The position numbers were made by a program, and so were the translations under genes. The notes under the pieces are model-generated. The model worked only from the letters and a program-made list of their open reading frames with translations. It was not told the DNA's origin and did no database searches. 64,000 nucleotides of DNA from contig CAYGQE010000006.1 of the NCBI GenBank assembly GCA_964351995.1, positions 65,045 through 129,044 on the forward strand, in the 5' to 3' direction. Origin of the DNA: an uncultured Acidimicrobiaceae bacterium. GTDB lineage: Bacteria; Actinomycetota; Acidimicrobiia; Acidimicrobiales; SZUA-35. This document shows positions 3,994 to 62,351 of the stretch, in pieces; position 1 is the first letter of the stretch; each line of letters starts with the position of its first letter.

Positions 3994-4025
3994 ATTTCCT
4001 AGTGCCGTAAGAGTACAACGAAACG

Positions 4026-4658
4026 ATGGGGACCGAAACGATGGAGACCGAAACCCGCCGAGAGCGTCACCGGCGCACCCTCATCGAGGAGATCCTGGCT
4101 GAAGCCCGATCGCTGCTCGAGCAGGGCGGTCCGTCCTCGGTCAGCCTGCGAGCGATCGCTCGAGCCGTCGGGATGAGCGCACCCTCGCTCTACACGTACT
4201 TTCCCAGTCTCAACGACCTTTTCACCGAGCTCATCGTTCGTAGCTATGACGCACTGGCCAGCCACGTCAGTCGTGACCTCGATGCATTGGGTGATGCGCC
4301 GGTGGGCGATCGGCTCGTCGCTGGTCCCTTGGCCTATCGGTCGTGGGCGCTCGAGAATCGTCAGCAGTTCAACCTGGTTTTCTTCGATCAGATCGCTGGC
4401 TACGAGGCTCCGGCCGATGGGCCGACCGTTGCGGCGCAGACCTCGGTGTTGCGCCCGATGGCGGTCGACTACGCGGCGGCGCACGGCCAGAGCCTCGAAG
4501 TGCTTCTGGAACCCGGCGACCTGCTCGATGACTTCCTCGGCTGGTGGGGCTCGTTTCACGGCCTCGTGGTGTTGGAGGTCAACCATCACCTGGACTGGGT
4601 CGATGCGAGCGCTGTGTTCGAACGCCGCCTTCGTCGGGAGATCCGTCAAATGTCTTGA
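4026..4658 (+). CDS. TetR/AcrR family transcriptional regulator
   Basis: N-terminal HTH region RRTLIEEILAEARSLLEQGGPSSVSLRAIARAVGMSAPSLYTYFPS. Confidence 0.85.
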   Translation: MGTETMETETRRERHRRTLIEEILAEARSLLEQGGPSSVSLRAIARAVGMSAPSLYTYFPSLNDLFTELIVRSYDALASHVSRDLDALGDAPVGDRLVAGPLAYRSWALENRQQFNLVFFDQIAGYEAPADGPTVAAQTSVLRPMAVDYAAAHGQSLEVLLEPGDLLDDFLGWWGSFHGLVVLEVNHHLDWVDASAVFERRLRREIRQMS

Positions 4659-28015: not shown

Positions 28016-28049
28016 CACACCGTTGTCATTTGCACACCGTTGTCATTTG
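28016..28049. repeat. Perfect 17-bp tandem duplication CACACCGTTGTCATTTG x2 upstream of the nuclease gene
   Basis: Read directly. It is preceded by the palindrome GTGTGAcaaTCACAC (28006..28020). The repeats lie 21-54 nt upstream of the nuclease start codon. Confidence 0.8.
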
Positions 28050-38935: not shown

Positions 38936-40354
38936 TCAGGAAGGCCAGGAGGCCTGGATCTTGTCAGCGGCTTCTTGAGCGGTCTGCTCGCCGTTGATTG
39001 CTGCGGTGCCTTCGGTCCAGAAGGTTCCGGCACCAACGTCGGCAGGCATGAGGTCGGACGCATCGAAGCGAACGGTCTCAGCGCCAACGAGGCTGGCGAT
39101 CATGCTGGCCTCGAGAGGCGCATAGATCGAGGTGTCGAGTCCCTGAACAGCGGTGAGGAAACCGGAGAGGTCGCCACCGTTGAGTTCACGCTGGGCGACC
39201 TGGCGGGCCGCGGCGTACTCGGGGGTCGCCATGTAGTCCATGATGGCCCAGACTTCGGGGCGATCCGAGAAGGCAGCGGCGAGGGTGCCGGCACCGAGGA
39301 CCGGCGCACCGGTGTTGGACGGGAAGTAGAACACGTCAACGGCGTCTTCGGAGCCATCGGCGAAGGCTTGGCCTTCATCGAACTGGTTCGAGAAGAACGA
39401 AGCCTGACGGTGCATCATGCAGTCGCCGGCAGCGAGTGCCGGAGCGTTTGCACCGAAGAAGGTCGAGGAGATGGTGCCGCCCGGGGCGAAGACCATGCCG
39501 TCGGTGTTGAACAGATCAAGCACGGCCTGCATCTGCGCAACGACACGCTCGTCGTTGAAGGGGATCTCGTTGGTGACCCACTGGTCGTAGACCTCGACGG
39601 GCTCGAAGCGAAGCATCATCTCTTCGACCCAGTCGGTGTACGGCCAACCCGTGGCAGTGCCGGACTCGATGCCCATGCACAGCGGGGTGTCGCCATTGGC
39701 GATCATCTCGCCGGTGAGGGCGACGAACTCGTCAAATGTCGTGGGGATCGTGTAGCCGCCAGCCTCGAATGCAGCAGGCTGGTACCAGACGAGCGACTTG
39801 ATGTCGGTCTTGACCGGGATACCGACCTGAGCGCCATCGACGTTGCCGAAGACGGTCCAGGCGTCACTCCAGTTGGAAGCAGTGGTAGCGGCGACGTCGT
39901 CGGGAAGCGGCACGAGGATGCCATCACGAGCGAAGTCGGCAAGCTTGCCGGGCTGCGGGAAGACCGAGATGTCCGGCGGGGCGCCAGCCTCGACCTGGAT
40001 GTTGACTTCGGATTCCCAGTCGGCGGAGCCGGTGTAGGTGACCGTGATGCCAAGGGATTCGCCGTAGGCGCCGAGGACTTGCTGGATTGCTCCAGCTTCG
40101 GGCTCAGAGCGCTCGGGACCGGTGATGTTGACCTCGGTGCCGGAGAGGTCGACTTCTTCCATCGCCTCTTCTTCTTCTTCCATGGCTTCTTCTTCCATGG
40201 CTTCGGTGGTGTCAGAGGACTCTTCCTCGGCGGCAGCCTCGGTGGTGTCGGTCTCTTCGGCCGTATCTGCTTCATCGTCCCCGCTACACGCTGCTGCCAC
40301 CATAGAGAAGGCAAACAAGAGTGCAAGCAGAGTCTTCCATTGCGAAAGTCGCAT
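38936..40354 (-). CDS. ABC transporter extracellular solute-binding lipoprotein (sugar family)
   Basis: Lipobox VAAACSG and an acidic EEAMEEEEEAMEE linker, followed by a family-1 SBP-like profile. Confidence 0.85.
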   Translation of the reverse strand: MRLSQWKTLLALLFAFSMVAAACSGDDEADTAEETDTTEAAAEEESSDTTEAMEEEAMEEEEEAMEEVDLSGTEVNITGPERSEPEAGAIQQVLGAYGESLGITVTYTGSADWESEVNIQVEAGAPPDISVFPQPGKLADFARDGILVPLPDDVAATTASNWSDAWTVFGNVDGAQVGIPVKTDIKSLVWYQPAAFEAGGYTIPTTFDEFVALTGEMIANGDTPLCMGIESGTATGWPYTDWVEEMMLRFEPVEVYDQWVTNEIPFNDERVVAQMQAVLDLFNTDGMVFAPGGTISSTFFGANAPALAAGDCMMHRQASFFSNQFDEGQAFADGSEDAVDVFYFPSNTGAPVLGAGTLAAAFSDRPEVWAIMDYMATPEYAAARQVAQRELNGGDLSGFLTAVQGLDTSIYAPLEASMIASLVGAETVRFDASDLMPADVGAGTFWTEGTAAINGEQTAQEAADKIQASWPS

Positions 40355-43668: not shown

Positions 43669-44073
43669 TCAGGAAGCGATCAACGCAGATGCGTCGATGT
43701 GCTCGATGCTGACGATTTCGACGCTGCTCTGGCTGTTGAGTTCAACGTCGACGGCAAGTTGTCGGCGAGCGTTATCTCGGGCTTGGATGACCGAGCGGCG
43801 ACTGGGTGAGCGAGGGGCGTATCCGGCGGCGGCGCGCTCTTCGTCGTTTTCGGCTCCCCAAAAGCCGTGTTCCCGGTTGAGGCGGGCGGTGCGGCGGCAC
43901 GGGAGCATCACGGGGCACGAGAGGCAGTAGCTCTTCGCCAGTGCTTCGCGCTCGACGCGTCGCTCGGGGCGCTCAGCCGATGGCCCGAAGAACACTTCGG
44001 TCAGGCCCTTGCACACTGCCTCGTCTTGCCAACTGAGATCAGTATCTGGGTGGGCGGTGAACTCGGTATCCAT
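43669..44073 (-). CDS. WhiB-family protein with about 55-aa C-terminal extension
   Basis: WQDEAVCKG...FFGP...AKSYCLSCPVMLPC...GFWGAENDEER gives four Cys in C-x29-C-x2-C-x5-C spacing. ATG 44073 is preferred because the N-terminus of the 170-aa ORF is hydrophobic and implausible. Confidence 0.75.
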   Translation of the reverse strand: MDTEFTAHPDTDLSWQDEAVCKGLTEVFFGPSAERPERRVEREALAKSYCLSCPVMLPCRRTARLNREHGFWGAENDEERAAAGYAPRSPSRRSVIQARDNARRQLAVDVELNSQSSVEIVSIEHIDASALIAS

Positions 44074-44104
44074 GACAGGTCCTTTGCGGGCTTCGACGAG
44101 TGCG

Positions 44105-44140
44105 TTTAGCACTAAAGGCAGTTTTAGCACTAAGACCGTG
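44105..44140. repeat. Two direct repeats with 18-bp period (TTTAGCACTAA core) 32-69 nt upstream of the WhiB-like start
   Basis: TTTAGCACTAAaggcagt TTTAGCACTAAgaccgtg. The core is an imperfect palindrome (TTAG ca CTAA) in the most AT-rich patch of the region. Confidence 0.6.
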
Positions 44141-44151
44141 AAAAAGGCAAG

Positions 44152-44189
44152 CAAAAGTTGACCCGTTGTGGCGAAGGACACAACTTTTG
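44152..44189 (-). terminator. Terminator-like hairpin inside the long intergenic region
   Basis: CAAAAGTTG...CAACTTTTG arms with inner GTTGTG/CACAAC pairing. On the minus RNA it is followed by CUUGCCUUUUUC. Confidence 0.4.
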
Positions 44190-44473: not shown

Positions 44474-45376
44474 CTATTCCCCTTGGCCGCCGGTTGAGGT
44501 GGCCGTACCTTGCTGGCGACGAGTGGCGGCGGCGTCGGCAATCAGCTTGGCTGCGGTTCGACTGTCGCTGTGCCAGAGATCAGCGCCGAGCGAGCGAGCG
44601 TGCTCCTCTGAGCAGATTGCCCCGCCGCCGATTGCAATCGGAATGTCGCCAAAGGCCGCTCGCAGGGCGCCGACGGTGTCAGTGGCTGATGCCTCGTGGT
44701 CGGGGCCGGTCAAGGACAAGGCCACGACGCAGTCGGCGAATCGCGTGCCGGCGGCAATGAAGGACGAGATGTCCGGGGACCCGCCGAGGTCGATGACGGT
44801 CACGCCGAAGGAGCGAATCAGGTCAGCGAACATCGCTGACGGAATCGAGTGAACGTCTCCAGGAGTCGCACCGACGACCACGATTCCTCGGCGACGACCC
44901 GGTGTGGCGAGGTGTGTGCCGAGTCTGCCGATGATGCGATGCGCAACGGCGGACGCCTTGTGCTCACTTGCGATCGAGAGTTCCCCGTCGGCCCACCGCT
45001 GGCCGATCGATTTGAGCGCAGGAGCCAACACATCGAGATGGATGCTGACGGGATCGTCATTCGAGGAAATCGATGCCTCGATCAAACGCCACGCTGCTAC
45101 TTCGTCGCCTGCGATCAGCGCCTCTTCGATGGTCATCGTGTCGTCGAGGTCGGTGACGCGTACTGCGTCGTTCTGGAATTCCGCCAAGTCGGCGGCGCTG
45201 ATCACCCACGAGCCCCGCTGCTTCTCGGCGTAGAGCAGCCCGAGTTTCACGTACCGGTACGCGGTCATGTAATGGACGCCGAGGTGGTCGGCCGCTTCTT
45301 GCAGTGTGAGGTCCCCAGTCGGCACGGCGCACACGCTACGAGATCTGCGTGCGGAGCGATGAACCGGTCGGATCAC
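44474..45376 (-). CDS. CarH/LitR-like regulator: excisionase/MerR-type HTH, W-x9-E-H helical bundle, B12-binding domain (paralog 1)
   Basis: HTH LTLQEAADHLGVHYMTAYRYVKLGLL; QRWADGELSIASEH (W-x9-EH); Rossmann VVVGATPGDVHSIPSAMFADL (DxHxx with Pro in place of Gly). Confidence 0.75.
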   Translation of the reverse strand: MIRPVHRSARRSRSVCAVPTGDLTLQEAADHLGVHYMTAYRYVKLGLLYAEKQRGSWVISAADLAEFQNDAVRVTDLDDTMTIEEALIAGDEVAAWRLIEASISSNDDPVSIHLDVLAPALKSIGQRWADGELSIASEHKASAVAHRIIGRLGTHLATPGRRRGIVVVGATPGDVHSIPSAMFADLIRSFGVTVIDLGGSPDISSFIAAGTRFADCVVALSLTGPDHEASATDTVGALRAAFGDIPIAIGGGAICSEEHARSLGADLWHSDSRTAAKLIADAAATRRQQGTATSTGGQGE

Positions 45377-45444: not shown

Positions 45445-46281
45445 GTGAGACTCGCAACATGGAATCTCTGGTGGAAGTTTGGGCCATGGGAGGCCCGCCA
45501 ACGCCCGATCGCAAGCGAGATCAACCTTGTTGACGCTGACGTCATGTGCCTCCAGGAGGTCTGGGCAGATGCTGATCATGACCAGGCTGAGTTGCTGGCC
45601 GCCTCGTCGGGAAGACATCTCGCCCGCACGACGAATGCCGACGGTATTGCTCATCCCTTCGGGAACGCCGTGCTGAGCCGCTGGCCGATCCAGCAGCATC
45701 ACACGATTGTCCTTCCCGGCAGCGACGGGGAACCAAGCCATCGCTCGGCGCTCTTCTGTGAGATCGACGTACCCGGGGCTACACATCCCTGGTGGGTGGT
45801 CAGTACCCACCTCGAGTGGCGCTATTCGGCGAGCGTTCTTCGTCAGCGCCAACTCGAAGCGATCGTGGCCGAATGTGCGCGAGTCCGAGCGTTGGTCCCA
45901 GACAGCATCGTGGCGATCGGTGGTGATTTCAATGCTGTAGCGGACAGCGACGAGATCCGTCGGCTCACCGGGCTGTCGGTTCCGTACAGCGAGCGTCTCA
46001 TTTTCACCGACGGATGGGCCGCTGTCACTGACGAACCCGGTCACACTTGGAGTCGAAGCAATCCGCATTCCAGCAATGCTCAGTGGCCGCGGCGCCGGGT
46101 CGATGCAGTCTTCGTTTCTTGGCCGCGCCCGAAGCCAACGGGCAACCCCATCGACGCCGCGCTTTTTGGCCTCGATGCGCTCCCGACGGGCGAGGGCGAT
46201 GCGGAGATCGTGCCGTCTGATCACTACGGCGTTGTCGTCGAACTCGATCGACGGACGACTGCTGACATCGAGGCCTCTTGA
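45445..46281 (+). CDS. Endonuclease/exonuclease/phosphatase (EEP) family protein
   Basis: MRLATWNLWW...DADVMCLQEVW and C-terminal SDHYGVVVEL motifs. Confidence 0.8.
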   Translation: MRLATWNLWWKFGPWEARQRPIASEINLVDADVMCLQEVWADADHDQAELLAASSGRHLARTTNADGIAHPFGNAVLSRWPIQQHHTIVLPGSDGEPSHRSALFCEIDVPGATHPWWVVSTHLEWRYSASVLRQRQLEAIVAECARVRALVPDSIVAIGGDFNAVADSDEIRRLTGLSVPYSERLIFTDGWAAVTDEPGHTWSRSNPHSSNAQWPRRRVDAVFVSWPRPKPTGNPIDAALFGLDALPTGEGDAEIVPSDHYGVVVELDRRTTADIEAS

Positions 46282-47221: not shown

Positions 47222-49261
47222 ATGGCGGGGGACACCGGAGTCGACCAACAGCAACTCGATCAGGGGCAGCTGGATCGTGCCGCATCGTGCCTCGAGGCAA
47301 TGAGCAATCGGGCAACCAAGATCCACGAGGCTGCACAGACGCGAGCCGAGCAGGAGAAGAGCGTCGATGCTCGGATCGCAGCAGCCAAGATGGAAGAGCG
47401 TCGCGCTGCGATCGATGCCGGCAGCGGACCGTTGTGTTTTGGCCGGATCGATGAAGACGGTCCAAGTCGCAGCCAACGTGACACCTGGTATGTCGGGCGT
47501 CGCCACATCGAGGACGCCGAGGGGAACCCCGTCGTCGTCGACTGGCGGGCACCGGTGTCAGCGCCGTTCTATCGAGCCACTTCGGTCGACCCCTGCGGTC
47601 TGGTCAGGCGTCGACGCTTCAGTATCGATGAGGGCCACATCACCAACGTGTTCGACGAGGATCTCACCGACCCGGACGGAGCGAGTGGCGGCCTGCCCGA
47701 TCCGCTGCTCGCTGAACTCGATCGTGGACGCTCGGGGCAGATGCGAGACATCGTGGCCACCATCGCCGGCGAGCAGGACGAGGTGATCCGCTCCGGCATC
47801 AATGAGCTGCTGATCGTGCAGGGAGGTCCGGGAACGGGCAAGACCGCCGTTGGCCTGCACCGTGCCGCGTATCTGCTGTTTGCCCACCGGGATCACTTCG
47901 CTGACCATCAAGTGCTGGTGATCGGGCCGAACCCGGTCTTCCTCCGCTACATCGCTGAAGTGCTGCCGTCGCTTGGCGAGCGGTCGGTGGCGCAAACCAC
48001 GGTCACTGGGTTGTTGGTAGCGAAGTATCGAGTGCGGTCTGAAGACCCAGCAACCGTCGTGCAGCTCAAGAGCGACGAGCGGATGGCCGAGGTCATTCGT
48101 CATTCGATGCGGCGCCGGATCGTTGCTCCCGTCGATGGTCTCGAACTGCGTTCGGGCGTGTCGAAGGTGCGGTTCGATCGTGACGCCGTCGATCAAATGA
48201 TGCAGCGTGCGCTCGACCGCAATCTCGCCTTGAACACGGCGAGGGACGTGTTCCGCAGCATCGTGTTGCAGGAGGCCTGGCGGCAGTTCGAAGCCCGACC
48301 GGGATCAGATCCCGGTCACCAGCCGGCATTTGTTGCAGCGATTCGTTCTGATCCCGGGTTCAAGAAGGACGTCGACCGGATGTGGCCAGCGTTCTCTCCG
48401 CCGGCGGTGATTCGAGAACTGTTGGGCTCCAAGACCAAACGCCGGGCTGCCGCTGACAGCCTCCTCGACCCAGCCGAACAAGCCTTGTTGCATCGGCCGT
48501 CGGCAAAGAAGGCCAACGAGGAACTCTGGTCGGCCGCTGATCTACCGCTGTTGGATGAGGCAACTGATCTTGCCGTCGGCGTACTGCCGGCGTACGGCCA
48601 TGTCGTGGTCGATGAGGCGCAAGACCACGGGGCCATGGCATTGCGAATGCTTGGGCGCCGAGCGAAGAACCACTCGATGACGGTGCTCGGCGACCTCGCA
48701 CAAGCAACTGCTCCCGGGGCAATCGAAGCATGGGACGAAGCAGCTCGCCATCTGTGCGGTGATCCCGACGGAGCGGTCGTGCGAGAACTCACCGTTGGCT
48801 ACCGCGTGCCGGCTGCCATTCTCGATGTGGCCAACCAGCTCCTTCGTGAGGCGGCGCCCTCGGTGACGCCCGCTCGGTCCATCCGGCCCGGTGGCGAGCC
48901 CCCGAGTCACTTCGATTTCAGCGACGACGAACAGATGGTCGCCGCGGTCGGCGACGCCATTGCGGCAACGACAGATCAACAGGGGCGAGCCTCGATTGCC
49001 GTGATCGCGCCTGTATCCCACCATGATCTGTTGCTCGCAGAAGTCCCTGGTCTGGTCCGCTTCGGAACGGGAACAGCGGTGAACTTGCCTGGTACCGAAG
49101 CCATTGCTCTGCTTGATCCAGATCAGGCCAAAGGGCTCGAGTTCGACGCCGTCGTTGTGGTCGACCCTCCAGCGATCCGTTCGGCCCCGAACGGATCGCG
49201 GCAGCTCTACGTGGCCATGACGCGAGCGGTGCAGACTCTCGCCATGGTCGAACCAACCTGA
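47222..49261 (+). CDS. HelD/HelR-like UvrD-superfamily helicase (RNA-polymerase-associated type)
   Basis: N-terminal FGRIDEDG...WYVGRRHIED..G.PVVVDWRAPVSAPFYRAT, Walker A GGPGTGKT, VVDEAQD, and C-terminal GLEFDAVVVV. Confidence 0.8.
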   Translation: MAGDTGVDQQQLDQGQLDRAASCLEAMSNRATKIHEAAQTRAEQEKSVDARIAAAKMEERRAAIDAGSGPLCFGRIDEDGPSRSQRDTWYVGRRHIEDAEGNPVVVDWRAPVSAPFYRATSVDPCGLVRRRRFSIDEGHITNVFDEDLTDPDGASGGLPDPLLAELDRGRSGQMRDIVATIAGEQDEVIRSGINELLIVQGGPGTGKTAVGLHRAAYLLFAHRDHFADHQVLVIGPNPVFLRYIAEVLPSLGERSVAQTTVTGLLVAKYRVRSEDPATVVQLKSDERMAEVIRHSMRRRIVAPVDGLELRSGVSKVRFDRDAVDQMMQRALDRNLALNTARDVFRSIVLQEAWRQFEARPGSDPGHQPAFVAAIRSDPGFKKDVDRMWPAFSPPAVIRELLGSKTKRRAAADSLLDPAEQALLHRPSAKKANEELWSAADLPLLDEATDLAVGVLPAYGHVVVDEAQDHGAMALRMLGRRAKNHSMTVLGDLAQATAPGAIEAWDEAARHLCGDPDGAVVRELTVGYRVPAAILDVANQLLREAAPSVTPARSIRPGGEPPSHFDFSDDEQMVAAVGDAIAATTDQQGRASIAVIAPVSHHDLLLAEVPGLVRFGTGTAVNLPGTEAIALLDPDQAKGLEFDAVVVVDPPAIRSAPNGSRQLYVAMTRAVQTLAMVEPT

Positions 49262-49337: not shown

Positions 49338-51359
49338 TCAGACGTCGAGGGCTTCGGAGTCAATGAGCGTGCTGTTGTTGACGATGTAGTCGCGACGGGT
49401 GGCGACGTCGCTACCCATCAGCACCTCGAAGAGCTTTGCTGCTTCGATGGCGTGCTCGGCATCAGCCATGGTGAGTCGCTTGAGCACACGAGTGCTGGGG
49501 TCGAGCGTGGTGTCCCGGAGCTCGTTGACGTTCATCTCGCCGAGCCCCTTGAATCGCTGCCATCGTTTCTCGGCCGAGAAGCCGTGCTCGGCGTGGAGCT
49601 GTTCCCGTTGCTCATCGCTGTAGGCGTAAATCTGCTCACCCCGGTGCTTCACCGCAAACAGCGGTGGCTGTGCGGCGTAGACCATGCCCGCCTCGAGCAA
49701 CGGCCGCATCTGGTGGAAGAGCAACGTGAGGAGCAAACAGCGAATGTGCGAACCATCGACGTCGGCGTCGCACAGGATGATGATGCGGCCGTATCGACAC
49801 GATGCGAGATCGAAGTCTTTGCCGGAGCCGGCACCGATCGAGGTGATCAGGGCTTGGGCCTCGGCGTTGTCGACAACTTGTTTCAGCGTGGCCTTGCCGG
49901 CGTTGACGACCTTGCCCCGCAGCGGAAGCACCGCCATCATCTCGGAGTTGCGACCCTGCTTGGCCGGGCCGGCAGCGGAGTTTCCTTCCACGATGAGAAG
50001 CTCGGAATCGGGCCCATGCAAGCGGCAGTCGGCCAGCTTGTCCGGCATGCCATTGGAGGAAAGGCTCGATGCCTTCCGGCGCGCTTCAAGCTGCTGCTTC
50101 GACAGCACACGGTTCAAAATGGCCTGCGCCATCTTGTCTCGCATGGCGTTGACCTGGTTCTTTTTGCCGCCGCCATCGATCCAGTTGGCCAACCCGGCTC
50201 GGGTGGCTTCGTTCACGATCTTCTGGATCGAGGGTGTGCCGAGCTCTTGCTTGGTCTGGCCCTTGAACTGCGGCTCGGCGAACGTGACCTTGACCGCAGC
50301 TACGAGGCCCTCTTGAGCATCGCTGGGTAGTGCTTTGTCGTTGCCGTCCTTGGCGAGCTTCTTGAGCTTCTTCATGTCGGCAAGCAGGTGCTCGTTGGCG
50401 ATCTTGGTGAGCGCTCGCTCGAATCCTTGGACGTGAGTGCCACCTTCAGAGGTGGGGATCGTGTTGACGAAGCTGACGATGGTCGAGTCGAACCCCTTGA
50501 CCCATCGAGCCGCAATGTCGACCGAACACGGTCGAGCGACGGTGGTCATCTTGCCATCGACGGGCACTCGCTCTTCGAAGCTGTCCTCGGCCCGGATGGT
50601 GATGATGTCGGTGACGTTCTCACCGACCGACAGGTAGTCGACGTAATCGGACAGGCCGCCGGCAGCCACGAACTCTTCAGGCTCGCGGCCAGGGCCGCGC
50701 TTGTCGGTCAGCTTGATGTGCAGACCGGGAACCAAGAAGCAGACACGGGCAACATGGTCGCGAATGCGGTCGTACTCGATGCGGGCGTCGGGATCGAAGA
50801 TGTCGAGATCTGGCCAGTAGCGGACTCGGGTGCCGGTGCGTGACGGCGGAATCGACTTGACCTTGGTCAACTTCGAGCCGGGCTTGAACGTACCATTTTT
50901 CAGGTAGTTGCCAGGCAGTCGCTCGTTGAACACCAGACGCCAGGTGGCGCCGTCACGGTCGACTTCGGCGACGACCTTGGACGCCAATGCGTTGACCACC
51001 GAAGCGCCGACACCGTGCAGGCCTCCCGAGGCGCTGTAGGCGCCAGAGCCGAACTTGCCGCCGGCATGGAGTTCTGTGAAGACGACTTCGAGCGCCGTGC
51101 GACCATCTGGCTTCTTGCCGACAGGGATGCCGCGACCGTCGTCGGACACCTCGACCGAACCGTCCTTGTGGAGCGTGACTTCGATGTGGGAGGCAAAGCC
51201 AGCGGCCGCCTCGTCGACGGAGTTGTCGATGATCTCCCACACAAGGTGGTGGAGGCCATCGTTGCCGGTGCCGCCGATGTACATACCTGGCCGCTTGCGG
51301 ACCGCGTCGAGGCCCTCGAGGACCTGGATCTTTGATGCGTCGTACTGGTCTTTTGCCAT
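49338..51359 (-). CDS. Type IIA DNA topoisomerase subunit B (ParE/GyrB family)
   Basis: VLEGLDAVRKRPGMYIG, GGLHGVGASVVNALS, the Toprim EGNSAGG, and PLRGKVVN motifs. Confidence 0.9.
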   Translation of the reverse strand: MAKDQYDASKIQVLEGLDAVRKRPGMYIGGTGNDGLHHLVWEIIDNSVDEAAAGFASHIEVTLHKDGSVEVSDDGRGIPVGKKPDGRTALEVVFTELHAGGKFGSGAYSASGGLHGVGASVVNALASKVVAEVDRDGATWRLVFNERLPGNYLKNGTFKPGSKLTKVKSIPPSRTGTRVRYWPDLDIFDPDARIEYDRIRDHVARVCFLVPGLHIKLTDKRGPGREPEEFVAAGGLSDYVDYLSVGENVTDIITIRAEDSFEERVPVDGKMTTVARPCSVDIAARWVKGFDSTIVSFVNTIPTSEGGTHVQGFERALTKIANEHLLADMKKLKKLAKDGNDKALPSDAQEGLVAAVKVTFAEPQFKGQTKQELGTPSIQKIVNEATRAGLANWIDGGGKKNQVNAMRDKMAQAILNRVLSKQQLEARRKASSLSSNGMPDKLADCRLHGPDSELLIVEGNSAAGPAKQGRNSEMMAVLPLRGKVVNAGKATLKQVVDNAEAQALITSIGAGSGKDFDLASCRYGRIIILCDADVDGSHIRCLLLTLLFHQMRPLLEAGMVYAAQPPLFAVKHRGEQIYAYSDEQREQLHAEHGFSAEKRWQRFKGLGEMNVNELRDTTLDPSTRVLKRLTMADAEHAIEAAKLFEVLMGSDVATRRDYIVNNSTLIDSEALDV

Positions 51360-51415: not shown

Positions 51416-53851
51416 CTACCAGCGAAGCGAGCCAATGGCGAGGATACGCCTTGGGGCTGAGCTGCTCGGGCCATCCCGTCGAGTTGGGCGAATGGCCACA
51501 GGCTCGGGGGTGTTGTCGTGCTTGGTTGGGGCGTCGGGCTGGCCGACGAGGGCAACGATGCGTTCGGGATTGCCGATCCAGGCAAAGTCGAGACGGCTCT
51601 CGTCTTTGAACTTGGTGATGCGAACACCGCCGGCGCCACGACCCTTGCTGGGCACCTCGGCGGCGTCGGTCGACTTGACCGTGCCGAGGTCGGTGACGGT
51701 GATGATCACGGTGTCGCCGGTGATGGGACCGGCGGCCAACACCCTGGCGTTGCCCTTCACACCAACGCCTGCGACACCCTTGGCGGCAGCGCCCTGCACG
51801 CTGATGCCTTCGGCGGGTGTGCGGAGGGCCTGAGCGTCGTTGGTGATGAACACGACGTCGAGGGACGGGTTGATCAGCTTGGCGGATACTACGGTGTCAC
51901 GGTCGGCCAGCTTCATGATTGGCTTGCCATCGCTGACTTCGGTCAGCACCGAGCGCTCGATTCGCTTGGCTGCGCCACCTGCAGTGGCCACGAGTAGTTG
52001 GTCGCTCGAATCGTCGGCGGATGCACTGACGATGGCGATGATGTTCTCGCCTCGCTCGGCTCCGAACGTCTCGGATGCATCGCGGCCTCGGCTACGGCCG
52101 CCGACTTCGGCCAGATCGAGCGCTCGGCGACGCAGCAATCGGCCCTTGTCTGTGATGGCCAACACGTCGCTGGCCAGGCTTCCAACGGCAACGGTATCGA
52201 TGACGTCGTGGCGGCCTGGGGTGTAACTCCGGGAGGTGCCGAGTGGCTCACGGCCGACGACACCGGAGGCCGAGAGGCTGATGAGGCAGGGCTCGTCGGC
52301 GGTGGCGAGATCGATCTCGGGAGCGGCTTCGTTGAGCGTCTTGATCTCGTCCGGGGAGATGATGCGGGTGCGACGAGGCGTCGGGTACTCCTTGACCAAC
52401 TCGCCGAGTTCGCGAATGACGATGGTCCGGCGCCGCTGCTCCGACGCAAGAATCTTCTCGAGATCGTCAATCTCTTCGAGCAGCAGTGTTCGCTCCTCGA
52501 CGAGGTCGGTGTAGGCAAGTGCGGTCAGGCGACGGAGTCGCAGTTCGAGAATTGCTTCGGCCTGGATCTCGCTGAGGCTGAGGGCTTCCATCAAGCCGGT
52601 GCGAGCGGCTTCGGAGTTGGCAGCGTTGCGAATGATCGACACGACGAGGTCGATGTTGTCGATGGCGATCAGGTAGCCCTCGACCCTGTGCAGACGTTCT
52701 TGCCGCTGACGGAGCCGGTACTCGGATCGTTTCACGACCATGTCGAGGCGGTGGTCGATGTAGTACTGGCAGAGGTCGTAGAGGCCGAGGGTGGTGGGCA
52801 CGCCATCGACGAGGACGACGTTGTTGATGCCGAAGGTCTCTTCGAGCGGTGTGAGTCGGTAGAGCTTCTGGAGAAGTACCGCCGGGTCGACGCCGGTCTT
52901 GCATTCGATCACCAGGCGCAAGCCAGAGTTGTGATCCGACAGGTTCTTCATGTCGGAGATCCCTGAGACCTTGCCGGCGATCACCAACTCCTTGACCTTG
53001 GCCATGACCCGCTCGACACCGATCATGTAGGGCAGTTCGGTGATGACGATGCCCTTGCGTGCTCGGGTGATGTCGACGATCTCGGCAGTGGCCCGGAGAC
53101 GAACCGAACCTCGACCGTGTTCGTACGCATCGTTGATGCCATCGTCGATCATGGTGCCGCCGCTCGGGAAGTCGGGGCCGGGCACGAGCTCACGCAGTTG
53201 CTCGAGTGTGGGCTTCGGTCGACGTTGACTCATCACGAGCTTGATGGCTTCGTAGATCTCGCCGAGGTTGTGCGGAGCCATGTTGGTGGCCATGCCGACG
53301 GCGATGCCCGTGGTGCCGTTGACCAACAGGTTTGGCAGCAGTGCAGGGAGGTATTGCGGCTCGACGTTCTCGCCGTCGTAGGTCGGGCGGAATTCGACGG
53401 TCTCTTCGTCGATCTCGGCCAGCAGGTGCAGTGCGGCGTCGCTGAGCCGGGCCTCGGTGTAACGCATCGCAGCTGGGGGGTCATCGAGGCTGCCGAAGTT
53501 GCCTTGGGGGTGGATCAGCGTGATCGACCGGGCGAAGTCTTGGCCCATGCGGACCAGGGTGTCGTAGATCGCACTGTCGCCGTGGGGATGGAACTTGCCC
53601 ATGACCTCGCCGACGACGCCGGCGCACTTGCGGTGGGGGCGGTCGGGAAAGAGGCGCATCTCGCGCATGGCGAACAAAATGCGCCGCTGAACGGGCTTGA
53701 GGCCGTCACGCACGTCAGGGATGGCACGCGAGGTGATGACAGACAGCGAGTACGCGAGAAACGACTCGCCGAGCTCTTCAGAGACCGGGACGTCGATGAC
53801 TTCTCGAGCAAAGGGCAGCAATTCACCCTGTGATGACATGGTTCGTTCCAT
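51416..53851 (-). CDS. Type IIA DNA topoisomerase subunit A lacking a GyrA box (ParC-like)
   Basis: [17 protein letters not shown], and the active-site AAMRYTE. No QRRGGKG-type GyrA box appears at the start of the C-terminal domain (the region reads [17 protein letters not shown]). Confidence 0.9.
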
Positions 53852-53853
53852 TT

Positions 53854-53925
53854 CTTCCGGCTGGCCGAGATCTTCTGGCTGGCCGAGTGCTTCACGTTGG
53901 CAGAGTGCTTCACGTTGGCAGAGTG
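53854..53925. repeat. Four tandem 18-bp direct repeats between the B12-regulator stop and the topoisomerase start
   Basis: Plus strand: CTTCCGGCTGGCCGAGAT CTTCTGGCTGGCCGAGTG CTTCACGTTGGCAGAGTG CTTCACGTTGGCAGAGTG. The last two units are identical. The array ends 3 nt from the ATG at 53851. Confidence 0.85.
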
Positions 53926-53953
53926 ATACTAGCCAGCTCCGAACGTCTGTTCG

Positions 53954-54799
53954 TCACGCCGGGCGGGTGTGTGATGGTGCGAGCTTGTCGAATTGGTCGA
54001 GCAGACCTTCGACATCTGGCGCCCAGATGGTGGCACCGGCAGCCTCGGCTTCCACCCGGCCGGGCACGCCTGCCCCGCCGAGTGCAACGTGAGCGTTTGG
54101 TCGGCGAGCACGAATCGCCGTGATGGTGTCCTTGGCCTGAGCGAGACTCGCACTGGTGGTCGAAGAGATGACGACACCGATGAACGGGCGGTCAGCCGAG
54201 CCCATGTCCATCACTTCGAGGAATGACTCGGCAGGAGTGTCGGCCCCGAGGTCTGTGACCTCGAAGTGGCGGCCCCGGAGGAGGTCGGCGATGATCGCGG
54301 TCGTCAGCGCGTGGGCGTCACCGGAGACCAAGCCGACCACGATGTGGCCGCGGCCAGTACCGCGGCGATGAAAACGAGGTCCGAGTCGGGCCGTGATCCG
54401 AGACGCAATGGTGGTCGCCTGGTGTTCGTCGAACACTTCGATCTCGTTGTTGGCCCACCGTTGACCGATCGAGCGCATGGCAGGGATGAGCATCCGGAGG
54501 TGGATCTCGGCTGGCTCGGCACCGGACGTCAGCGCTTGGGAGACAACGGCCCAGGCGCCAGGCTCGTCAGCAACGAGGAGTCGGTCTTCGAGCTGCGCAG
54601 CGGCTCGAGTGCGTACGCCCTCGCTGGGCTTTGAGTCGTTGCCGTTGGCAAGTGCTTCGATGTCTGCCGAGTCGACAAACCATTGACCGCCTTCTTTGGT
54701 GGCCGCCAAGCGCCCCGTTCGCACATAGCGGTACACGGTCATGTAGTGCAGTCCGAGGTTCTCGGCTGCAGCCCGAAGGCTGATCGAATCCGCCGGCAT
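53954..54799 (-). CDS. CarH/LitR-like regulator: excisionase/MerR-type HTH, W-x9-E-H helical bundle, B12-binding domain (paralog 2)
   Basis: HTH ISLRAAAENLGLHYMTVYRYVRTGRL; QRWANNEIEVFDEH (W-x9-EH); Rossmann IVVGLVSGDAHALTTAIIADL. Confidence 0.75.
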   Translation of the reverse strand: MPADSISLRAAAENLGLHYMTVYRYVRTGRLAATKEGGQWFVDSADIEALANGNDSKPSEGVRTRAAAQLEDRLLVADEPGAWAVVSQALTSGAEPAEIHLRMLIPAMRSIGQRWANNEIEVFDEHQATTIASRITARLGPRFHRRGTGRGHIVVGLVSGDAHALTTAIIADLLRGRHFEVTDLGADTPAESFLEVMDMGSADRPFIGVVISSTTSASLAQAKDTITAIRARRPNAHVALGGAGVPGRVEAEAAGATIWAPDVEGLLDQFDKLAPSHTRPA

Positions 54800-54884
54800 C
54801 AGGGGATGATCTCATACTGGCGACGCATGCTGTGGGATTCACCGGGAAGGATTCATGAGCCCGGTGGGCCCGTCGTCGAAGGGA

Positions 54885-55121
54885 TCAGCGGCGACGGCGA
54901 CGACGGTGGGCGTCAATCTTGCGCGCTGACTTGATGACACCCTCGAGGCGCTCGGTGAGTTCGGCCGGCTCTTCTCGGGCTTCGGTATCGAGTTCAGGAG
55001 CCAAGGCTTCGAGGATGGCGCTGACGCTCACGCCCTGTTCGGCGGCGAATCCGTGCCACTGATCGTGGGCGTCATCGCTGACATAGGCATGCAGGGCCTT
55101 GCGGCCATTGTCTTGAGACAT
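54885..55121 (-). CDS. Small hypothetical protein, possible ribbon-helix-helix fold with poly-Arg tail
   Basis: ALHAYVSDDAHDQWHGFAAEQGVSVSAILEAL resembles a strand-helix-helix unit. The protein ends in HRRRRRR. Confidence 0.4.
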   Translation of the reverse strand: MSQDNGRKALHAYVSDDAHDQWHGFAAEQGVSVSAILEALAPELDTEAREEPAELTERLEGVIKSARKIDAHRRRRRR

Positions 55122-55229
55122 GGTGTCGTTCTCTCTGTTCGCATCCTTGCGGATATCACTCTTCGCGGCGGTGCCAATACTTCCGGCGTCATGTTTGTAT
55201 CACGATCTTGCACCGGAGCGTTGCAACTC

Positions 55230-59756: not shown

Positions 59757-60566
59757 CTACGCAGCGAGCAAGACCATCACCAGAAGCATGGCAGCGATGA
59801 ACCCGACGAACAGCCACTCCATACGGCTTCTCGTCAGGCGCTCGTTGCGCAGGTAGGTCTCGAGGATCTCGGATCGACCGGCGGCTTCGAGCAACTCTTG
59901 TTCCATCTCGCTGAGGCGGTGTTGACGGCCGGCGTTTGCCCGTCGAGCCAGAGCAAGTTGGCTGGTGAGAGCCTCTTGCTGGCTCTTGAGATCGGAGAAT
60001 GCTGTCTCGGTGTCGCTGAGTTGCTGCTCCAGCGCCACTCGATCGACATCGGGAGCGGTCGCGTCGTCGCCGGTCGGAAGGGGGTTCTTCAAACGAGCGC
60101 GGATCTTGCGGAGATCACTTGCCGAGTCAGGCTCGACGGGAGCGAGGATCCGTTCGATGGCAAGCAAGATGCTCTCGAGGTAGGACGTGTCGTCTGGGAG
60201 GTTGAAGTGAGCCCAGAGGTTTCGAGCCTCGATCAACTGCTCGACCAGTCGCCGCAGGTCTGCAGTGAACGTGTTGCTGAAGACTGGGCCCCAAAAGCGG
60301 CGAAGTACGAGGAGCTGGAACAGCGGATCTGTCGCACCGTGCTCGGCTGGACGGCCCATGCGGTTGGCGGCCGCCTCGGTCCAGGAGACCTCGTCTGCGA
60401 AGTGTTCGTGCATCTGTTCGTCGATGAACGGACCCATTCCGAGCGCGAAGATCTCGAAGGCCTCGGCCATCTGGCCGTGCCTGCTCACTCTCAGATCGGG
60501 GCGAACGGATGTCATGGGTGGCTCGGTACTGCTTTCCACGTCGGGCGTCGATCTGATTATCGGCAC
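59757..60566 (-). CDS. Swt1-like HEPN domain protein with coiled-coil and C-terminal membrane anchor
   Basis: FEIFALGMGPFI...DPLFQLLVLRRFWGPVF...LIEARNLWAH gives R-x4-H. An Ala/Gln/Glu/Leu-rich helical segment of about 100 aa follows, then the terminal TM WLFVGFIAAMLLVMVLLAA. GTG start. Confidence 0.6.
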   Translation of the reverse strand: MPIIRSTPDVESSTEPPMTSVRPDLRVSRHGQMAEAFEIFALGMGPFIDEQMHEHFADEVSWTEAAANRMGRPAEHGATDPLFQLLVLRRFWGPVFSNTFTADLRRLVEQLIEARNLWAHFNLPDDTSYLESILLAIERILAPVEPDSASDLRKIRARLKNPLPTGDDATAPDVDRVALEQQLSDTETAFSDLKSQQEALTSQLALARRANAGRQHRLSEMEQELLEAAGRSEILETYLRNERLTRSRMEWLFVGFIAAMLLVMVLLAA

Positions 60567-60623: not shown

Positions 60624-60665
60624 CGAATCGCTCAAGTTTGGGTCTGAACGGCCGTTCCCACAGTT

Positions 60666-62351
60666 GTGAAGAAAACCCGACTCGCCCTTCATCCAGGGCA
60701 AGTGCTCCTGGCCGGCGTGATCGGCGCGGTCCTTTGGACCGCTGTACTGTCGACCCTGGTCGGCATTTCGTTTCGGGAGACCGTCTTGGCATCGAGCGGC
60801 GGCTTCATGGGCGCCGCAGCGGGAACATGCGGTGCGCTCATCCAGGCCCACCGAGCTCGGGCCGCACGCGACATGTTGGAGCGAGCGGAACACGAAGCCA
60901 ATCACGATGGTCTGACGAACCTGTTGAACCGCAACGCACTCCTTCGCCAGCTCGACGCCTCGATCGTCACCGCTCGGAAGAACGACACCGTCGTCGGCGT
61001 GCTTTTCCTCGACCTCAACCGGTTCAAGGTCATCAACGACTCGATGGGCCATGAAGCGGGCGATGAGCTGTTGCGGATCGTCGCTGAACGATTGCTCTCG
61101 ACCGTTCGAGGCTCGGACATCGTCGCTCGATTCGGCGGTGACGAATTCGTCGTCGTCGTTCGAGGCCTCCTGAATCAGAAGTCGGTCATTGCTGTTGTCG
61201 ATCAGATTCTCCACACCTTCGAGAAACAGGTGTCTCTGTTCGGCGGAGCGCTCGTGGTCTCGACTTCGATCGGTGTCGCCATCACCCGGCCGGGAGAGAC
61301 GCGCAGTGCCGAGGATCTGCTGCGAGATGCAGACGCTGCGATGTACAAGGCGAAGAAGGGGCGCGGCGGCTACGCACTGTTCGACGACCAGCAGCGAGCG
61401 GAGGCCGTCGACCGACTCGACATCGAACGCGACCTCGTTCGGGCGCTCGTCGAAAAGCAGCTCACGGTCTTCTTCCAGCCGCTCGTCGACGTGTCGACCA
61501 AGCGCCTCTACGCCTTCGAGGCGCTGGTTCGCTGGAACCATCCAAAACGTGGCCTGATTGGTCCCGGTGCCTTTCTGGGCGTGGCCGAGGAGACGGGCAT
61601 GATGGCCGAGATCGGCGAGTACGTGCTGCGAGAAGCCACGGCACAAGCTGCGGTCTGGAACCATCTGAACCCGAATGCCCGATCAGTGAAGATGAGCGTG
61701 AACATCGCTGAACAACAGCTGATCGACAAGAACTTCCCGGAGACCGTGCAGAACGTCTTGTTGTGGTCAGGGCTTCCTGCCGACCAGCTGGTGCTCGAGA
61801 TCACCGAGGACGTGATCGTTGACCACCTCGACGGTGTCAGCATCCTCAACCGCATTCGGGACCTGGGGGTGTCGCTGGCGATCGACGACTTCGGTACCGG
61901 CCAGTCATCGCTGAGCTACATCAAGCAATTCGACATGGTGTCCACGTTGAAGATCGATCAGGTCTTCGTCCGTGAAATGAACGATGGCGACTCGAACAGA
62001 GCCATCATCGAGGCCATCGTTGCGATGGCGAAGGCGCTTCACCTGCGGGTGGTTGCTGAGGGCGTCGAGACCATCGAACAGGTCAACCAACTGCGCACTT
62101 TGGGTGTCGACGTCATGCAGGGATACCTGTTCAACGCTCCACTCGCAGCGAATGGCATCGATCCAGCATCGTGGTTTGTGCCTGACGCACCGGTACCAGA
62201 TGCTGCCGAAGGGCTCACGCCGCTCGAGGTTGCCACGGGGCTCGCCACGGCGGCTGCGGTGCCTTCGAGCACAGTTCCTTCGAGCACGGTTCCTTCGGCG
62301 GACGACTCGATCCCGCTCGGTTTGCGTCAACGCCCCGCTCGTCGAGGCTGA
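60666..62351 (+). CDS. Membrane-anchored GGDEF-EAL protein (diguanylate cyclase/phosphodiesterase)
   Basis: RFGGDEFVVVV, FEALVRW and DDFGTGQSSLSYI, with N-terminal TM helices. GTG start. Confidence 0.9.
   Translation: MKKTRLALHPGQVLLAGVIGAVLWTAVLSTLVGISFRETVLASSGGFMGAAAGTCGALIQAHRARAARDMLERAEHEANHDGLTNLLNRNALLRQLDASIVTARKNDTVVGVLFLDLNRFKVINDSMGHEAGDELLRIVAERLLSTVRGSDIVARFGGDEFVVVVRGLLNQKSVIAVVDQILHTFEKQVSLFGGALVVSTSIGVAITRPGETRSAEDLLRDADAAMYKAKKGRGGYALFDDQQRAEAVDRLDIERDLVRALVEKQLTVFFQPLVDVSTKRLYAFEALVRWNHPKRGLIGPGAFLGVAEETGMMAEIGEYVLREATAQAAVWNHLNPNARSVKMSVNIAEQQLIDKNFPETVQNVLLWSGLPADQLVLEITEDVIVDHLDGVSILNRIRDLGVSLAIDDFGTGQSSLSYIKQFDMVSTLKIDQVFVREMNDGDSNRAIIEAIVAMAKALHLRVVAEGVETIEQVNQLRTLGVDVMQGYLFNAPLAANGIDPASWFVPDAPVPDAAEGLTPLEVATGLATAAAVPSSTVPSSTVPSADDSIPLGLRQRPARRG

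Follow-up and report, generated by a model that had tools for sequence, protein, structure and literature searches.

Mycobacterial MIRU-VNTR loci are intergenic minisatellites that are used for strain typing. Contingency loci, described in Neisseria and Haemophilus, have units of 1 to 8 bp arranged in long tracts and switch at high rates, turning genes on or off through promoter spacing or reading frame. The LexA box of Gram-positives and Actinobacteria is TCGAAC-N4-GTTCGA, and imuA'-imuB-dnaE2 is the canonical LexA-regulated mutagenesis cassette. The sequences of actinobacterial SOS boxes have been listed (PMC9380542). In Streptomyces venezuelae, parE was identified as a LexA target by ChIP-seq and RNA-seq (PMC9380542), which provides a precedent for SOS control of a topoisomerase IV gene. 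The operators of CarH consist of three or four tandem 11-bp repeats with TnnACA, which lie over the −35 or −10 element and are contacted from one face of the DNA (PMC9304148).

Here we compared these systems with a tandem array found in the leader of a type IIA topoisomerase operon of an uncultured marine member of the Acidimicrobiia. The whole stretch of DNA analysed, 64 kb in length, is called the window below. In our judgment the array is quite probably a VNTR (minisatellite) formed by tandem duplication of an 18-bp piece of the 5' leader, and not a binding site or an RNA structure.

The 18-bp array and the leader of the topoisomerase operon

The features of the operon and of the region upstream of it are as follows.

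49338 to 51359, minus strand: type IIA topoisomerase subunit B (ParE/GyrB family), second gene of the operon, with Pfam HATPase_c, DNA_gyraseB, Toprim and DNA_gyraseB_C and with NCBIfam matches
51416 to 53839, minus strand: type IIA topoisomerase subunit A (ParC/GyrA family, topoisomerase IV-like), Pfam DNA_topoisoIV at 4e-145
53840 to 53853, minus strand: purine-rich leader tail AAATGGAACGAACC, conserved before the ATG, probable ribosome-binding region
53854 to 53925, minus strand: the whole 18-bp array, four head-to-tail units, from TRF and direct reading
53854 to 53871, minus strand: unit 4, nearest the start codon, ATCTCGGCCAGCCGGAAG
53872 to 53889, minus strand: unit 3, CACTCGGCCAGCCAGAAG
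53890 to 53907, minus strand: unit 2, CACTCTGCCAACGTGAAG, the same as unit 1
53908 to 53925, minus strand: unit 1, CACTCTGCCAACGTGAAG
53926 to 53931, minus strand: candidate −10 TAGTAT (TAnnnT type) of the topoisomerase operon, conserved and of putative function
53940 to 53953, either strand: palindrome CGAACAGACGTTCG, candidate LexA (SOS) box lying across the −35/spacer and adjoining the TGA stop of the regulator
[quoted passage not shown]

The two subunits were taken as a presumptive topoisomerase IV-like operon, since subunit A passed the NCBIfam PRK05561 cut-off (738 bits against 654), stayed under the gyrA equivalog cut-off and contained no GyrA-box motif.

The array was the best tandem repeat in the window. 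TRF reported it at 53854 to 53925 with a period of 18, 4.0 copies, 87% matches and a score of 74, the highest among the 32 TRF rows for the window, which confirmed the four head-to-tail 18-bp repeats of the initial annotation; the unit sequences it had quoted in gene sense agreed exactly with our reading. A degenerate unit pattern with at most three mismatches matched seven times in the window compared to 1.87 ± 1.38 times in shuffled sequences, and none of 100 shuffles attained seven matches. Four of these matches were adjacent and formed the array, and the other three were scattered, with three mismatches each; no further copy of the array was found by the pattern scan elsewhere in the window. 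For the same strain there are two further, independent assemblies (L001 and L002), which encode the same regulator protein. Their array was base-for-base identical to that of the window, and the array is therefore not an assembly artefact.

Along the minus strand, the order was the regulator TGA, CGAACAGACGTTCG, GAGCTGGC, TAGTAT, two copies of CACTCTGCCAACGTGAAG, CACTCGGCCAGCCAGAAG, ATCTCGGCCAGCCGGAAG, AAATGGAACGAACC and ATG TCA TCA. The array had been described as filling almost the whole gap between the two genes, but it accounts for 72 nt only. The 28 nt on its 5' side hold the conserved palindrome and the −10, and the 14 nt on its 3' side are the conserved, probable ribosome-binding stretch. 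The reported gap of 102 nt is correct when measured to the ATG at 53851, the start of the longest ORF; the conserved start, an ATG at 53839 located 12 nt downstream, gives 114 nt instead. As the ATG at 53851 is absent in four relatives (L085, L090, L091 and L093) and the ten-residue protein stretch that begins at 53839 is conserved, the true start of topoisomerase subunit A is taken to be 53839. The sequence [AG]A[ATG][TC]GGAA[CAGT]GAA[CT]C lay directly 5' of this ATG in all relatives irrespective of repeat number, and the conserved block continued as ATG TCA TC. CAG GGT GA in every locus. In most alleles a small hairpin of 4 bp, in which AUGG at 53851 pairs with CCAU at 53841, could cover the start codon.

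TAGTAT was present at the position given in the initial annotation, and a −10 of the TAnnnT type was kept in all 11 relatives, where TAG[TGA]AT (TAGTAT, TAGGAT or TAGAAT) occurred at a fixed distance of 8 nt from the palindrome. The −10 was called from this conservation, since the sigma-70 consensus scan suits actinobacterial promoters poorly; run over 53500 to 55200, this ill-suited scan returned no promoter and no terminator. TAGTAT was the sole TANNNT in the intergenic region between the regulator and topoisomerase genes, and the array contained no TA dinucleotide at all. The array thus cannot hold a −10, which places the promoter upstream of it and the array in the transcribed leader, in support of the earlier proposal that the repeats belong to the transcribed 5' leader. 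The operon would accordingly have its own promoter directly after the regulator stop, with the LexA-type box over the −35/spacer and the −10 lying 8 nt further on. Transcription would start ~7 nt after TAGTAT, within unit 1, as placed from the conserved −10 only. The leader would be ~80 nt long here and ~26 nt long with one unit, so that the array would lengthen the mRNA leader by steps of 18 nt.

Between the regulator gene and the topoisomerase gene, no terminator-like site was found. In the distant relatives L004 and L012 the two genes were nearly contiguous and the box was missing. These observations make read-through from the regulator promoter possible, and the array may be contained in a polycistronic read-through transcript as well.

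Copy number of the unit in related loci

The loci compared were those of regulator homologues with 70 to 99% protein identity, and the same intergenic region was read in each. The useful loci came from a profile-based scan and from exact-protein look-ups; single-protein scans with the regulator yielded no locus from genome contigs and one locus from metagenome contigs. The length from the conserved −10 (TAG[TGA]AT) to the conserved start region (..GGAACGAACC-ATG) was quantised in 11 related loci, with values of 31/32, 50, 68 and 86 nt for one, two, three and four units (32 + 18n).

31/32 nt, one unit: L093, L094 and L086 to L088
50 nt, two units: L084, L085 and L090
68 nt, three units: L089 and L083
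86 nt, four units: the window
76 nt: L091, a leader of the L083 type with one extra nested 8-bp CAGCC[CA]GA copy
84 nt: L092, a leader of the L083 type with two extra nested 8-bp CAGCC[CA]GA copies

Every in-register 18-nt block matched the consensus CACTCGGCCAGCCAGAAG at 10 to 18 of the 18 positions, compared to 5.3 ± 1.9 for random sequence. The diverged three-unit array of L089 was not called by TRF, and its units were assigned by register and by identity with the consensus. The 8-bp microsatellite belongs to one sub-lineage, that of L091 and L092, and is nested in the degenerate third 18-bp unit; the two loci (2418 to 2441 and 2418 to 2449, respectively) encode an identical regulator protein and differ there by one 8-bp unit.

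The closest comparison was that of the window strain, with four units, and L084, with two, which share 98% DNA identity. The 36-bp difference, corresponding to two units, was the sole indel in their 3.1-kb alignment. When the regulator genes were placed on a neighbour-joining tree, the two deepest branches, L093 and L094, had one unit, and the expansions were scattered over the tree. The presence of a single unit in these most divergent loci, and also in L086, suggests that one copy is likely the ancestral state of the leader. Unit 4 (53854 to 53871) is the counterpart of the single copy in the most divergent relatives, and the identity of units 1 and 2 in the window indicates a recent duplication. 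All changes from one to four units were exact multiples of 18 bp, and a GCC..GAAG core was kept in every unit. Both features are expected from recent duplication and are also compatible with some constraint on the unit. Repeated tandem duplication, by replication slippage or unequal recombination, would have expanded a single ancestral leader segment.

The unit sequence drifts among the relatives, for example in L085 and L083, while the neighbouring palindrome stays invariant. With conserved flanks and a variable array, the locus is better described as a VNTR than as a conserved site: head-to-tail copies were in excess over chance, and their number varied between the conserved flanks. A slippage product had been the fallback reading of the initial annotation, and it agrees with the one to four copies found in related loci. 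Read in this comparison of sequences, the array itself is an ordinary slippage-type VNTR, presumably near-neutral, that lies 3' of a putatively SOS-controlled promoter.

Other tandem duplications were observed as well. L003, a relative with 55% identity, has an unrelated array of five 14-bp units in the same intergenic region (ATCGCACAGAATCG, 4301 to 4370, TRF score 133), which directly follows the regulator stop and lies 5' of its LexA-type box. Tandem duplications between the genes seem to be common at the junction of regulator and topoisomerase. With 32 TRF rows, short tandem duplications are frequent in the window. Several that are perfect or nearly so, with units of 15 to 21 bp, ~2 to 2.4 copies and TRF scores of 65 to 72 were located at 28016 to 28049, 40153 to 40204, 4019 to 4054 and 62262 to 62297; one of them lies between convergent genes and the remainder lie inside coding regions.

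Alternative roles of the array

The alternative that survives best, although we regard it as unlikely, is that the array serves as an adaptive tuning knob, in which the leader length or the number of GAAG motifs (Shine-Dalgarno-like, as for ribosome standby) sets the topoisomerase level from strain to strain. Topoisomerase is dosage-sensitive in principle. The copy number changes rapidly and in quantised steps while the flanks for the promoter and ribosome binding remain intact, and each unit ends with GAAG or GGAAG, resembling the conserved purine-rich stretch before the start. However, the predicted accessibility of the ribosome-binding site was ~0.5 to 0.7 for all unit numbers, and no significant structure was found. 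The few copies and the 18-bp unit imply mutation rates far below those of classical contingency loci, and the units diverge (L085 and L083) as in neutral drift. An effect of copy number on expression, through leader length or through the additional purine-rich GAAG motifs, would probably be small.

The initial annotation had considered the array a plausible operator, with the adjacent B12 regulator as the CarH-like binder. In such a scheme a tetramer would occupy the four repeats 3' of the −10 and block transcription in the dark; this now appears improbable, and considerably more so than the tuning function. The proposal had attractive features. The regulator gene is the immediate upstream neighbour and has the same orientation, its protein has the Wx9EH and B12-binding motifs typical of AdoCbl photoreceptors, and CarH tetramers bind three to four tandem direct repeats (PMC9304148), with exactly four units present in this strain. 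The comparison of strains nevertheless spoke against it. The initial annotation had itself named repeats that are highly variable in close relatives as an argument against its proposal, and such variability was what we found, with one to four units in relatives each of which has retained the regulator, and with two versus four units at 98% DNA identity. A tetramer cannot sit on a single unit. TnnACA is missing on both strands of the array, and the 18-bp period does not correspond to whole helical turns, so that successive units would face different sides of the helix, as opposed to the 11-bp TnnACA repeats of CarH/LitR operators. The array also lies wholly 3' of the −10, so that there are no three or more conserved repeats over the −35/−10 region. 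The unit occurred neither 5' of the regulator's own gene nor elsewhere in the window, and the units drift freely beside an invariant palindrome.

The regulator differs from CarH as well. Its DNA-binding domain is an excisionase-type HTH_17 (Pfam, residues 10 to 53, HYMTVYRYVRTGRL), and it has no MerR-type winged helix with an RxWERRY recognition helix. Against the CarH equivalog NF052513 of NCBIfam, the regulator scored 55.9 bits, far under the cut-off of 400, and the match was confined to the B12 module, at residues 67 to 266. The B12 module itself (Wx9EH, D/ExHxxG..SxT/V..GG) is present, with WANNEIEVFDEH (Wx9EH) at residues 115 to 126, DAHALT at residue 161, in which Thr replaces Gly/Pro, and SST..LGG from residue 212. 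W115, E125 and H126 were invariant in 43 regulator homologues, and the closest solved B12 domain was that of photocobilin (8J2W/8J2X, E = 1e-20), compared to 3e-7 for CarH. The regulator is thus a plausible light or cobalamin sensor. The sensor reading says nothing on whether the regulator binds the array. Given the copy number of one to four and the conserved palindrome upstream, an operator function of the repeats is improbable; the LexA-type palindrome at 53940 to 53953, which the initial annotation had missed, is the conserved candidate for that role. What remains is a strain-typing-grade length polymorphism of the 5' leader, and a tempting but wrong candidate operator of a B12-type regulator is removed.

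An RNA-level element acting after initiation, such as a structured leader, riboswitch, attenuator or sRNA target, had also been suggested, and we consider it highly unlikely. The array does lie in the transcribed leader, and the self-complementary GGCC core would let neighbouring units pair. However, the leader with the first 33 nt of the coding sequence folds with −31.6 kcal/mol, which is no better than shuffled sequences (z = −0.34; 65 of 200 shuffles as good), and the leader alone gave z = −0.78 here and −1.7 to +1.6 across the alleles, with no shared structure. Rfam at a permissive threshold returned chance-level matches only (E ≥ 1.2), far below the gathering scores, and no terminator-like hairpin with a U-run was found. 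Neither Rfam nor the folding z-score placed the leader in a described structured RNA family.

Finally, translation of the repeats, either as hexapeptide repeats added to the N terminus of the topoisomerase or as a small ORF 5' of it, can be dismissed with near certainty. In its favour, 18 bp equal six codons, the topoisomerase frame is open back to the regulator stop and a GTG within units 1 and 2 opens a 132-aa ORF (53515 to 53913). However, the topoisomerase frame offers no start codon (ATG, GTG or TTG) 5' of 53851, L086, L089 and L090 lack the GTG or TTG, and the 132-aa ORF runs into the topoisomerase gene in another frame. Relatives also differ in length by 1, 8 and 10 nt (31, 76 and 84 nt); these differences are not multiples of three, break any frame and rule out coding.

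The LexA-type palindrome, the B12-type regulator and comparison with known systems

The perfect palindrome CGAAC-N4-GTTCG had one match in the window, at 53940 to 53953. It is of the Cheo/SOS type, agrees with the LexA box given above and lies 8 nt 5' of the −10. Each of the 11 close relatives, as well as L003, kept it as CGAACA[AG]A[CT]GTTCG. The same type of box, CG[AT]AC-N4-GTTCG[AC]TA, preceded imuA'-imuB in all 10 loci with these genes and dnaE2 in all 3 loci with that gene, among relatives within the Acidimicrobiia and elsewhere in the Actinomycetota. The 10 imuA'-imuB loci belong to a set of 80 genome loci collected by way of the regulator family, and 3 of them reach dnaE2; as every box-bearing locus was retrieved via the B12 regulator, each box lies near such a gene by sampling. 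The palindrome is thus located in a promoter, and its motif recurs at canonical SOS genes of relatives. Its presence at imuA'-imuB and dnaE2 indicates that the palindrome at 53940 to 53953 is very probably the LexA operator of this clade, where binding is predicted from the motif and comparative genomics. No recA, lexA, uvrA or ruvB was present in the DNA that was fetched, and no SOS genes were found within the window. A role of the B12 regulator at the palindrome would be a less likely alternative. A further palindrome, GAACGGCCGTTC, was observed at 60646 to 60657, 9 nt 5' of the start of a GGDEF-EAL gene (60666 to 62351), between this gene and a divergent HEPN_Swt1-domain gene (59757 to 60566); it may be a chance match.

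According to the source names of the homologues and the genome titles, the regulator family occurs in Acidimicrobiia and other Actinomycetota. Among 80 loci of the family, the neighbours were topoisomerase genes in 4, imuA'-imuB in 10 and ABC1 or WhiB in ~10, the others having no assigned neighbour. Neighbours were assigned by tblastn with known neighbours, the GC3-based gene caller being unreliable on very GC-rich contigs. The imuA'-imuB loci (L025, L026, L046, L056, L060, L062, L063, L065, L068 and L079) showed the HTH_17-B12 gene followed by a LexA-type box on the same strand and then imuA'-imuB, and dnaE2, where present (3 loci), had its own box. The topoisomerase operon has a matching layout, which points to a recurrent link of this B12 regulator family with SOS operons.

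Several observations were made around the regulator gene. Its upstream region (54800 to 54884) contains a block conserved in relatives, TGAATCCCAC ... GGTATG[AC]GA.CAT, which is a candidate promoter or autoregulatory site of the B12 regulator. A conserved ORF of 78 aa (54885 to 55121, minus strand) with a C-terminal arginine run and no Pfam or NCBIfam matches was always located between a glutaredoxin gene and the regulator, and a strongly conserved block, CGTGATACAAACATGACGCCGGAAGTATTGGCACCGCCGCGAAGAGTGA, lies upstream of it (region 55122 to 55229). Neither the 18-bp unit nor the palindrome was found upstream of the regulator gene or the 78-aa gene, which have their own conserved motifs there. 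At a distance of 9 kb (44474 to 45376, minus strand) there is a second HTH_17 and B12-binding paralogue, which likewise has Wx9EH. It is accompanied by a 170-aa WhiB-like gene (43669 to 44181, minus strand), an Exo_endo_phos (ExoIII-family) nuclease gene (45445 to 46281, plus strand) and a UvrD-like helicase gene (47222 to 49261, plus strand), with ABC1 kinase and glutaredoxin genes close by, a neighbourhood which we take to resemble the mycobacterial whiB7-uvrD2 region.

These data provide a well-supported promoter model, with a candidate LexA box, for a topoisomerase IV-like operon in uncultured marine Acidimicrobiia, and they add to Streptomyces parE, the one experimental case in Actinomycetota of decatenation genes under SOS control. 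The most interesting lead of the locus, which is no part of the array, is the repeated arrangement of B12 regulator, putative LexA box and DNA-damage operon. The recurrence of HTH_17-B12 regulators before SOS-box operons offers a testable lead on a possible coupling of the responses to light and to DNA damage. A more speculative idea, to which we give little weight, is that the HTH_17-B12 family upstream of LexA-box operons represents an undescribed link between light sensing and DNA damage in Acidimicrobiia, in which an SOS promoter would be combined with light- or cobalamin-dependent read-through, or the regulator would act at the palindrome. If so, the array would be a strain-specific modulator of a leader shared by both transcripts.

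Compared with the described systems, the array shares with MIRU-VNTR loci the head-to-tail units between or within co-oriented actinobacterial genes, the variable copies and the conserved flanks. However, MIRU-VNTR units are ~40 to 100 bp, whereas the unit here is 18 bp, occurs at a single locus and derives from the local leader rather than from a dispersed family. The array resembles contingency loci in that the repeat number changes between a promoter element and the start codon, but it has an 18-bp unit in one to four copies 3' of the −10, where no effect on spacing or frame is expected. With the CarH/LitR operators (nnnnTnnACAn, bound by AdoCbl-CarH tetramers; PMC9304148), it has in common three to four direct repeats and a B12 transcription factor gene adjoining the promoter; it differs from them in its 18-bp rather than 11-bp period, the missing TnnACA, its location 3' of the −10 and its unconserved number of one to four copies, and the neighbouring regulator has another DNA-binding domain and fails the equivalog threshold. 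The LexA-parE case of S. venezuelae (PMC9380542) is similar in having an SOS box of the TCGAAC-N4-GT.. type 5' of a topoisomerase IV subunit gene, a likeness that concerns the palindrome and not the array. In the locus described here, the candidate box is a perfect CGAAC-N4-GTTCG that abuts the stop of a B12 regulator and lies at the promoter of a parC/parE-like operon, with subunits A and then B in one operon.
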